Shown here in pieces: positions 3,469-4,013 of a stretch of DNA of 64,000 nt. A program made the position numbers and the translations under genes. The notes beneath the pieces are model-generated. The model had not been told where the DNA came from. It ran no database searches and was given only the letters and a program-made list of their open reading frames with translations. This stretch comes from a virus. Position 1 is the first letter of the stretch, and each line of letters begins with the position of its first letter. The stretch is from IMG/VR virus record IMGVR_UViG_3300026488_000019, positions 20,996 through 84,995 of that record; one strand, given 5' to 3'.

Positions 3469-4013
3469 CTCTTAACCCAAGTAGCTGTAGAAGTTTTAAC
3501 ATAGAAGTCTCCTGCTACATCCCATACAACATCTTTAACTGATTTAATGTAAATAGTTCCATCCTTCTCAATCCTAATTTTTGAACCAGATGAATGATGG
3601 AACTCTACATACTCCTTAGCTTTATTTATCTTAAACCAATTATTCTTCTTATCCCTAAACCCATAAGTTTCAGGGTAGTCTTCATCAAATAAATGTTGAT
3701 GGGTAGGAGTTGACTGGATTTCCCCTATGTAGTAAGGGTTATAAATAGAATCTTCAAACTTAACTATTACATAAGAACCTTTCTCTGGAACTGAAAAGTT
3801 AGAGGAATCAGACCTAGCTCCTAACAGGTTTGGTCTAATAGGATGAACAAAAGGTAAGTGTTTAGCTGGGATACCTTTCCATAAAGGTTTTATCATTACC
3901 TTTATCCTCCCCAACTGGAGAGGGTCTGCGTTTCAGATAACCTCGCCTACCCACAACTTACTTGTTATGTCAAATTTTTCATCTTTCAAAGTATCAGCTA
4001 ATGCTATTATCAT
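3465..4013 (-). CDS. Baseplate central spike (gp5 OB-fold / gpV-like), 182 codons with an in-frame UGA at codon 27
   Basis: ATG at 4013 with GGAGG upstream. Reads MIIALADTLKDEKFDITSKLWVGEVI-(TGA 3933-3935)-NADPLQLGRIKV, which completes the gp5 GxVxxxxDPxxLGRxKV motif. The ORF track starts only at 3914. The C-terminus carries HSSGSKIRIEKDG. Confidence 0.85.
3906..3923 (-). promoter_or_regulatory. SECIS-like hairpin 3' of the in-frame UGA in the spike gene
   Basis: CCUCUCC-AGUU-GGGGAGG; stem +10..+27 and loop +17..+20 after the UGA. Confidence 0.6.

Follow-up and report, generated by a model that had tools for sequence, protein, structure and literature searches.

An in-frame UGA and a SECIS-type hairpin in the central-spike gene of a phage baseplate module, with a twin site in the adjacent hub-like gene

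How can a phage spike protein be made from a gene that carries a stop codon at codon 27? The question is raised by a gene on the minus strand of a 64,000-nucleotide stretch of viral DNA, hereafter the window, which spans positions 20,996 to 84,995 of the IMG/VR virus record IMGVR_UViG_3300026488_000019 (84,995 bp; CheckV completeness 96%). The gene is predicted to encode a central spike with an OB-fold of the gp5/VgrG type and is interrupted by an in-frame UGA. Translation very likely continues through this codon by programmed recoding, as judged from the conservation of the flanking sequence. The best explanation of the whole locus, advanced tentatively, is that the UGA is recoded through insertion of selenocysteine (Sec) by the host, directed by a hairpin of the bacterial selenocysteine insertion sequence (SECIS) type. 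The elements of the spike gene are the following.

3465..4013, minus strand: central-spike gene (gp5/VgrG-type OB-fold), 182 codons plus stop with UGA at codon 27, assigned on its translation, phrog_430, a Protein Data Bank (PDB) profile and AlphaFold/Foldseek
4021..4025, minus strand: Shine-Dalgarno (SD) sequence GGAGG, 7 nucleotides (nt) 5' of ATG 4013..4011; homologues start at the aligned Met
3933..3935, minus strand: in-frame UGA, codon 27, at the end of strand β1
3906..3923, minus strand: SECIS-type hairpin with 5' arm CCUCUCC (3923..3917), loop AGUU (3916..3913, +17..+20 after the UGA) and 3' arm GGGGAGG (3912..3906)
3894..3896, minus strand: internal ATG, Met40, 9 nt 3' of the GGAGG of the hairpin; start of the public gene call and possible reinitiation site

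Read on the minus strand from ATG 4013..4011, the frame gives MIIALADTLKDEKFDITSKLWVGEVI, then TGA 3935..3933, then NADPLQLGRIKVMIKP and onwards, and stays open until the stop at 3467..3465. The start has been assigned elsewhere: the list of open reading frames (ORFs) under translation table 11 begins the gene at TTG 3914 (L34) and a public gene call at ATG 3896 (P0002, 143 amino acids, aa). An earlier note on this DNA had pointed out that the ORF track opens in mid-motif at 3914, and that ATG 4013 with its GGAGG SD yields WVGEVI*NADPLQLGRIKV; the sequence confirms this.

The 26 codons ahead of the UGA align with the rest of the family. The homologue set comprises the best 149 of 1,312 proteins found at E <=0.001 by exhaustive HMMER searches, the protein of the window itself being excluded; residue-conservation counts and the PDB profile are built from 80 sequences. 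In phmmer, the alignments of 143 of the 149 homologues span codon 27, and five of the remaining six have 27-36 residues ahead of the alignment. The sole homologue that begins at the stop site is P0135, a distant protein of 208 aa that starts MKDNDDPKKLGRVKC, 3 residues before the position matching the stop: it represents either a miscalled start or a second gene interrupted at the same place, and an IMG/VR search returned no relative of it. Searches by tblastn recovered 51 phage records, 24 of which cover at least 80% of the query, and proteins of Vibrio, Rhizobium and Pseudomonas phages align from residue 1-3. The family phrog_430 (baseplate hub subunit and tail lysozyme) matches the read-through product with 63.6 bits (E 2.5e-17), aligned from residue 19, and the TTG-3914 ORF, from which the upstream part is removed, with 42.0 bits.

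The motif that characterizes these OB-folds, GxV..N.DP..LGR.KV, is present in the spike and runs across the UGA: G23, V25, N28, P31, R36 and K38 are conserved in at least 90% of the 80 sequences and D30 is invariant. The 80-sequence profile matches residues 8-86 of T4 gp5 (E about 5e-12 to 1e-11), along with VgrG, Afp8 and other injection-system spikes. The AlphaFold model of the spike has a mean predicted local distance difference test (pLDDT) score of 92.6, with β1 at residues 20-27 and β2 at residues 37-40, and the central-spike matches found by Foldseek are P1 gp5 (TMq 0.73 / TMt 0.65), Afp8, VgrG, T4 gp5 and P2 gpV. The hidden Markov model check proposed in the earlier note, an alignment of the read-through product to Gp5_OB or Phage_base_V, succeeded in part: Phage_base_V aligns from residue 22 (residues 22-88 on profile positions 2-62), with a score of 15.2 bits that lies below the cut-off of 23.8 (E 0.028), and no Gp5_OB match is listed up to E 10. 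As Pfam remains under threshold, family membership rests on PHROGs, the PDB profile search and the fold.

Because β1 comprises residues 20-27, the UGA falls at the end of the first OB-fold strand, and a product starting at Met40 would miss two strands. In the AlphaFold model a restart at TTG 3914 (L34) would cost β1, and one at ATG 3896 (M40) both β1 and β2. The earlier note had placed the first strand ahead of the UGA, which the model and the 143 spanning homologues bear out, and had expected a truncated fold from any downstream restart, which the predicted loss of strands supports. Nor do homologues begin at the LGRIKV position.

The UGA is present in independent data. Logan contigs derive from run X1, a metagenome of a hydrothermal vent and possibly the source sample, and from runs X2-X4 of a different study (2025); no RNA run is among the sequencing runs listed for the stretch. 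Contigs of X1 are identical to the window over 3000..5000, TGA included. In X3, record 14 (depth 11.5) covers 3865..4003 with 19 differences in 139 letters, an identity of ~86%. No difference is listed at 3933..3935; since the table omits better-supported differences only towards the ends of an aligned piece, and the stop is 69-71 letters inside the closer end, the TGA is read as retained in this record. The changes near the site hit 10 codons, seven of them synonymous (15, 19, 20, 23, 28, 38 and 48) and three leading to replacement (I16A, S18T and E24K). Such mostly synonymous changes on both sides of the stop are the pattern to be expected of a translated sequence.

More remote relatives carry a sense codon. 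The three closest full-length ones (loci L006/L010, L011 and L012, 56-57% identical; the L012 contig is 88.8 kb long) have GAT or AAC (Asp or Asn) at codon 27, and Met40 is common to L006 and replaced by Gln in L011 and L012. These three loci at 56-57% and one at 27% were returned from IMG/VR by a search with a two-sequence spike alignment, which gave one relative at 34% in metagenomes. No close relative was found by blastn against 50,697 phage records or with the spike protein against IMG/VR; an index of 5.8 billion proteins yielded only the 143-aa call of the window itself, with nothing more among shorter proteins; a pattern with NNN at the stop had no match in IMG/VR or Joint Genome Institute (JGI) metagenomes; and the 185,579 species genomes searched with the spike alignment contained no relative.

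Codons 28-39, which separate the UGA from Met40, carry the most conserved motif of the family. Nine of these 12 are identical to those of the 56-57% relatives, against an overall identity of 52-54%, and within this segment both changes of the 86% relative (codons 28 and 38) are synonymous. By this comparison the 12 codons appear still to be constrained as protein, and it is because they hold the top conserved motif, largely identical and altered only synonymously, that translation is considered very likely to proceed beyond the stop. The earlier note had judged readthrough to be apparently obligatory: continued translation is well supported, whereas the mechanism was left open and a selenocysteine-type hairpin was not considered there.

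What distinguishes this UGA is the RNA that follows it. After 9 nt comes a 7-bp stem closed by a 4-nt loop, the entire signal being only about 30 nt long. The hairpin alone has a folding energy of -10.6 kcal/mol and is part of the minimum free energy (MFE) fold of an 81-nt stretch (-24.1 kcal/mol, z -2.79), with 2 of 200 shuffles folding as well. The 32 nt from 3935 to 3904 have 56% G+C against 34% for the genome, which is in a state of extreme CpG depletion (whole genome G000: observed/expected 0.17, 4.9 CG per kb). The description of the UGA surroundings in the earlier note as GC-rich, with CG dinucleotides otherwise scarce, is accurate as to composition and scarcity, the whole 549-nt gene containing 2 CG; the segment itself has one CG, not several.

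The arms are written in rare codons (CTC, 9% of Leu; TTG, 9% of Leu; GGG, 11% of Gly). The hairpin region keeps invariant D30, P31, L34, G35 and R36, and the variable positions 32-33 are L-Q here as opposed to mostly K-K in the family, which is the look expected if protein and RNA structure were jointly constrained. No change is listed over 3901..3929, the hairpin plus the DPLQLGRIK codons, in X3 record 14; the same holds for X2 record 6 and X3 record 13, which cover up to 3920. The 56-57% relatives, with a sense codon at the site, have no hairpin. The rare codons, the invariance in diverged relatives, the absence where the codon is sense and a twin next door support selection on the spike hairpin, as the earlier note had proposed for the structure CCUCUCC-AGUU-GGGGAGG. 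Neither it nor its twin is terminator-like. A third candidate hairpin at 3881-3905 on the minus strand (AUAAAGGU...ACCUUUAU), with the AUG of Met40 in its loop, was set aside: a G-C pair in its stem is lost in the X3 relative, where the G at 3900 has become A, and the hairpin is probably not conserved.

The twin site lies in the gene immediately upstream, whose elements are given below.

3994..5178, minus strand: hub-like gene, one 394-codon frame listed as two ORFs, 4753..5178 and 3994..4722
4753..4755, minus strand: second in-frame UGA, codon 142 of the hub-like gene; Glu in all three close relatives
4708..4756, minus strand: second SECIS-type hairpin, with a 13-bp lower stem that includes the UGA, an upper stem of 4742..4737 paired with 4732..4727, and loop GUUC at 4736..4733 (+17..+20), followed by ATG 4722..4720

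Here 10 nt follow the UGA, then UCCCUA, the GUUC loop and UAGGGA, which form a 6-bp upper stem; the hairpin folds with -25.0 kcal/mol (z -3.02). The joined 394-residue product aligns straight across the junction with single ORFs of 369-374 aa in the three relatives (43-45% identity), and phrog_25710 also spans the junction. The Met at which a restart would occur (Met153) is Gln in all three relatives; the public gene call P0153 uses this AUG. No other gene in the genome has a TGA interruption of this kind. The hub-like identity is a lead drawn from position and synteny together with an Atlas match (P2 gpD / Mu gp44 / XkdQ clusters, score 0.96): Pfam gives no match for either half, and an AlphaFold model built on three sequences is unusable (mean pLDDT 39.1). 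Among the contigs that overlap this gene, X3 record 14 joins 4003 to 4256, so that 252 letters of the 3' part are skipped and must be deleted or replaced in that strain. In X1, the match of record 3 (depth 53) is confined to 3718-3776 and 4595-4635, the two pieces being separated by 907 letters of other sequence; this suggests that a more distant relative is present in the same sample.

How well do the two hairpins fit known selenocysteine signals? The bacterial SECIS consensus set out in the Fig. 2 legend of PMC13188914 comprises a loop of 3-9 nt, an upper stem of 4-16 bp, a UGA-loop spacing of 16-37 nt and an MFE <=-7.5 kcal/mol. In the same legend, the loop has G in one of its first two positions, mostly followed by G or U (PMC13188914). 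Both phage sites lie within every one of these bounds, with upper stems of 7 bp and 6 bp and the 4-nt loops AGUU and GUUC. The MFE of 60-nt folds is -19.6 kcal/mol at the spike site and -23.2 kcal/mol in the hub-like gene. Of 3,012 TGA triplets in the genome assessed by MFE folding, 199 (6.6%) agree with the consensus, and 17 (0.56%) do so with an MFE <=-15, both recoded sites included; the stability of the downstream window ranks in the top 0.8% for the spike and in the top 0.17% for the hub-like gene.

To our knowledge, SelB-dependent Sec insertion is the only hairpin-dependent reading of UGA in bacteria; because of this, and because both hairpins fit, it is ranked first. The device might operate as follows. 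A single spike gene of 182 codons would be translated from ATG 4013, and the UGA at codon 27 would have to be decoded for the protein to fold. With the UGA in the A site, the GC-rich tetraloop hairpin would stand just outside the ribosome and direct recoding in the manner of a bacterial SECIS; host SelB carrying Sec-tRNA(Sec) would bind the loop and insert selenocysteine, and ribosomes failing to recode would terminate after 26 residues. As the hub-like gene seems to possess the same device, the pair of central baseplate proteins would be produced jointly, in restricted quantity and solely where the host is Sec-competent.

Could the host supply the machinery? The genetic code of the phage itself is not reassigned, and apart from the two sites TGA acts as a stop. 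The whole genome contains 0 tRNA genes and hence no suppressor tRNAs; its 107 called ORFs end in TAA (65), TAG (27) or TGA (15), the last often in ATGA overlaps; only 2 in-frame TGAs occur in 26,616 codons; and ORFs gain no more length when TGA is taken as a sense codon than when TAG is. A link to potential hosts is offered by a TnpB gene of the phage at 53477..54892 on the plus strand, with OrfB_IS605 and a Cas12f1-like TNB domain. Its relatives, at 77-86% and often multicopy, occur in vent metagenome-assembled genomes (MAGs) labelled Desulfurobacteriaceae, Desulfofervidaceae and Deltaproteobacteria (Guaymas), with one at 66% in a Thermotogae MAG, a distribution that suggests an insertion sequence moving between vent bacteria and phage.

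Four of the five MAGs that share TnpB have selB above the curated cut-off and tRNA-Sec scoring 77-83 bits. The two Desulfurobacteriaceae MAGs that were searched for selD have a Sec-type gene with one in-frame TGA, followed by the SECIS AAGCCC-GGUC-GGGCUU, a GC-rich stem of 6-8 bp with its loop at +18..+21 (17-nt spacing), close to the geometry of the phage hairpins. The FdhA SECIS elements of two deltaproteobacterial MAGs have G-first loops farther from the UGA and are less like them. These results show only that Sec-using bacteria with a similar SECIS geometry coexist with the phage and share an insertion sequence; on sequence grounds such bacteria are plausible hosts.

Several observations weigh against selenocysteine, and the most important concerns the residue itself. 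In known selenoproteins Sec sits where relatives have Cys. Column 27 of the 149 homologues contains D 83, S 18, N 9, F 8, E 8, V 5, Y 5, Q 3, K 3, A 3, G 2, I 1 and L 1, so that Cys and Trp are both 0/149 and no redox role is evident; the defining feature of a selenoprotein is thus missing at this position. The spike protein is moreover without any Cys. The UGA-loop spacing of 16 nt at both sites lies at the lower edge of the consensus, and the 6-bp upper stem of the hub-like gene taken alone misses -7.5 kcal/mol, passing only with its lower stem. Bare geometry, a stem of at least 6 bp that carries its 4-nt loop at +17, shows no enrichment across the genome (13 of 3,015 TGA versus 11.1 in shuffles). 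For neither site did Rfam, which may or may not hold a general bacterial SECIS model, give a match close to significance. Across the relatives seen the hairpin does not vary and hence displays no covariation, and the TGA is known only from this phage and from one strain, or a few, in a single further study. An SD-like sequence closes both hairpins and is followed by AUG, an arrangement compatible with reinitiation too.

As to the host, the phage encodes neither tRNA-Sec nor a SelB wing domain, and the TnpB link is weak because the insertion sequence occurs in several phyla. The MAG loci have 41-46% G+C against 34% for the phage. Window positions 1-20000 compared with 28 genomes of the Desulfurobacteriaceae-type family had no spacer-like match, the only similarities being weak ones in the lysozyme (SLT) domain (66-75% identity).

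The chief competitor, somewhat unlikely but ranked second since homologues lack Cys at the site and have many different residues there, is near-cognate readthrough: a host tRNA, most probably tRNA-Trp, would read a leaky UGA, and the hairpins would enhance this by hindering release factor 2 (RF2) or pausing the ribosome, or would serve some other function. All the evidence for continued translation applies to it equally. Column 27 is variable and accepts aromatics (F 8 and Y 5 of 149), so Trp should be acceptable there, and the lack of Cys raises no difficulty; low yield would also suit proteins required in three copies. UGA is described as a leaky stop read at low frequency as Trp, and conserved in-frame stops as common in bacterial genes, above all in the mobilome category, in PMC7918605. 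But plain leakiness needs no hairpin, and this explanation has to contend with two stable hairpins at equal spacing, built from rare codons and amino-acid replacements, beside the only two interrupting TGAs. A literature search found no bacterial hairpin-stimulated readthrough outside SECIS, and we know of none. Bypass of the stop by the ribosome, a frameshift, an intron and an intein are all rejected in view of the codon-for-codon alignment across it.

The hairpins invite another reading, in which ribosomes that stop at the UGA melt the structure, free an SD in its 3' arm and restart at Met40 or Met153, so that each gene would consist of two coupled cistrons. The 3' arms do provide GGAGG, 9 nt and AUG 3896 in the spike, and AGGGA, 4 nt and AUG 4722 in the hub-like gene; the public calls P0002 and P0153 use precisely these AUGs, and the hub-like gene may be split at a domain boundary. 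Yet a spike beginning at Met40 would be deprived of β1 and β2; the codons skipped, 28-39, are the best conserved of the family and stand intact here (9/12 identical, synonymous change only in the 86% relative); the restart Met of the hub-like gene is Gln in all three relatives; and locus L006 has GGAAGG followed by ATG without any stop, which indicates that SD plus AUG is partly the mere coding of G-R-I-K-V-M. Reinitiation is therefore improbable. Equally doubtful is the view that both TGAs are nonsense mutations in a decaying or non-infective lineage and the hairpins coincidental. The sequence is metagenomic, and at each of the two sites a sense codon is present in the three closest full-length relatives, but the rest of the 85-kb genome is intact, dense and 96% complete by CheckV, and the TGA persists at ~14% nucleotide divergence with mostly synonymous changes on either side; the chance that both sites would carry a consensus hairpin with MFE <=-15 is about (17/3,012) squared. 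Least credible of all is an assembly error or a host in which UGA is a sense codon throughout (table 4 or 25). The window derives from one metagenome assembly, and low G+C would suit some table-4 or table-25 hosts; however, the TGA is kept in a contig of an independent study, TGA ends 15 of 107 ORFs, only two in-frame TGAs are found in 26,616 codons, and there are neither suppressor tRNAs nor extra ORF lengthening.

Under either of the two leading mechanisms, Sec insertion or near-cognate readthrough, only a fraction of ribosomes would complete the protein. In T4 the hub and the spike, a textbook pair, are trimers present in three copies per virion; fractional output would suit proteins needed in such numbers.

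How does the locus compare with systems already described? The closest likeness is to the bacterial SECIS/SelB system, with E. coli fdhF as prototype: an in-frame coding UGA, an immediate stem-loop and a small apical loop with G-U, the spacing, stem and stability of the phage sites being within consensus. In fdhF only 30-40% of ribosomes recode, according to PMC4513850. The differences are that the gene here belongs to a phage and encodes a predicted structural virion protein, not an oxidoreductase, that Cys is found in 0/149 homologues, that the phage lacks Sec machinery of its own, and that two sites occur in neighbouring and presumably interacting proteins.

Precedents among viruses differ in other respects. 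In the RNA coliphage Qβ, the minor virion protein A1 reportedly arises through a leaky UGA (Weiner and Weber, 1973); this resembles the present case as phage UGA decoding by a fraction of ribosomes for a low-copy virion protein. There the stop ends a complete and abundant coat protein to which readthrough adds an extension, whereas here it falls in β1, termination leaves a 26-residue peptide and only the recoded product can be expected to fold; in addition, a dedicated hairpin follows the stop in this phage. Phages with reassigned stop codons have many recoded stops and usually suppressor tRNAs. They include crAss-like phages and others, as mentioned in PMC7918605, and share with the present phage in-frame stops in late structural genes; here there are two in-frame TGAs, no tRNA genes, and TGA as a normal stop. 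If the Sec reading is true, the phage would resemble the poxviruses molluscum contagiosum and fowlpox, whose selenoproteins, glutathione peroxidases, are described in PMC8310308, the fowlpox SECIS lying within the coding region; in each case a virus gene would rely on host Sec machinery. The poxvirus proteins are captured cellular redox enzymes of eukaryotic viruses with a catalytic Sec, as opposed to native phage structural genes without Cys in homologues. A literature search for phage selenoproteins found no paper, the only viral ones found being the poxvirus glutathione peroxidases, and one on phage tail or baseplate genes turned up no instance of readthrough.

As a spike, the protein shares with T4 gp5 (1k28), P1 gp5 (9vzk), Afp8 (6rbk), VgrG (8gra) and P2 gpV (3qr8) an N-terminal OB-fold with the motif G-x-V-x-x-N-x-D-P-x-x-L-G-R-V-K-V, a hub-like gene upstream and a PAAR gene downstream. 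It departs from them in its 182 residues, its lack of a lysozyme domain, its brief C-terminal β part and its UGA interruption, the nearest phage homologues measuring 212-266 residues.

The two sites are distinctive in two respects: their genes are adjacent members of the baseplate module, and the residue found there in relatives is Asp, Asn or Glu. Should the stops be recoded, the phage would make a pair of essential, low-copy baseplate proteins contingent on that event, which would set their amounts or tie assembly to the selenium status of the host. If the inserted residue is selenocysteine, these would be virion selenoproteins of a phage at sites without cysteine ancestry, widening ideas of how Sec is used; if near-cognate decoding operates instead, the genes would exemplify bacterial readthrough that is associated with a hairpin yet independent of the Sec system. 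A speculative and improbable extension has spike Sec27 joined to Sec142 of the hub-like protein, through either a diselenide or a link between selenium and a metal, so that the puncturing device is held together in hot, reducing vent surroundings in which disulfides fail. Were it correct, assembly of infectious particles would depend on the selenium supply of the host, and the phage particle would contain a pair of selenoproteins with structural Sec and no Cys homologues. There is also a practical consequence: gene callers shorten the spike to an internal start and break the hub-like gene in two (P0002 and P0153), so phage structural genes with such stops are liable to be mis-annotated or taken for broken.

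The surroundings of the spike form a baseplate module in a window that is dense in coding under table 11. Upstream are the hub-like gene and a gene for a 643-aa protein with an SLT lysozyme domain; downstream come a PAAR gene and then gp25-like and gp6-like wedge genes (GPW_gp25, E 7.5e-15; Gp6-like, E 0.0025).

3178..3468, minus strand: PAAR-motif gene in ATGATG overlap with the spike stop, encoding the expected spike tip partner (Pfam PAAR_motif E 2.1e-5, 25.1 bits, slightly below the cut-off of 27)

The listed ORFs of the PAAR gene, of the spike and of the two parts of the hub-like gene, four in a row within 3178-5178 on the minus strand, all end in TGA, against only 15 of 107 in the genome as a whole. 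Elsewhere in the window, at 59021-61717 on the plus strand, a family A DNA polymerase carries an N-terminal fusion of the uracil-DNA-glycosylase (UDG) superfamily, with the UDG at residues 27-174, the exonuclease at 210-403 and the polymerase at 451-824.

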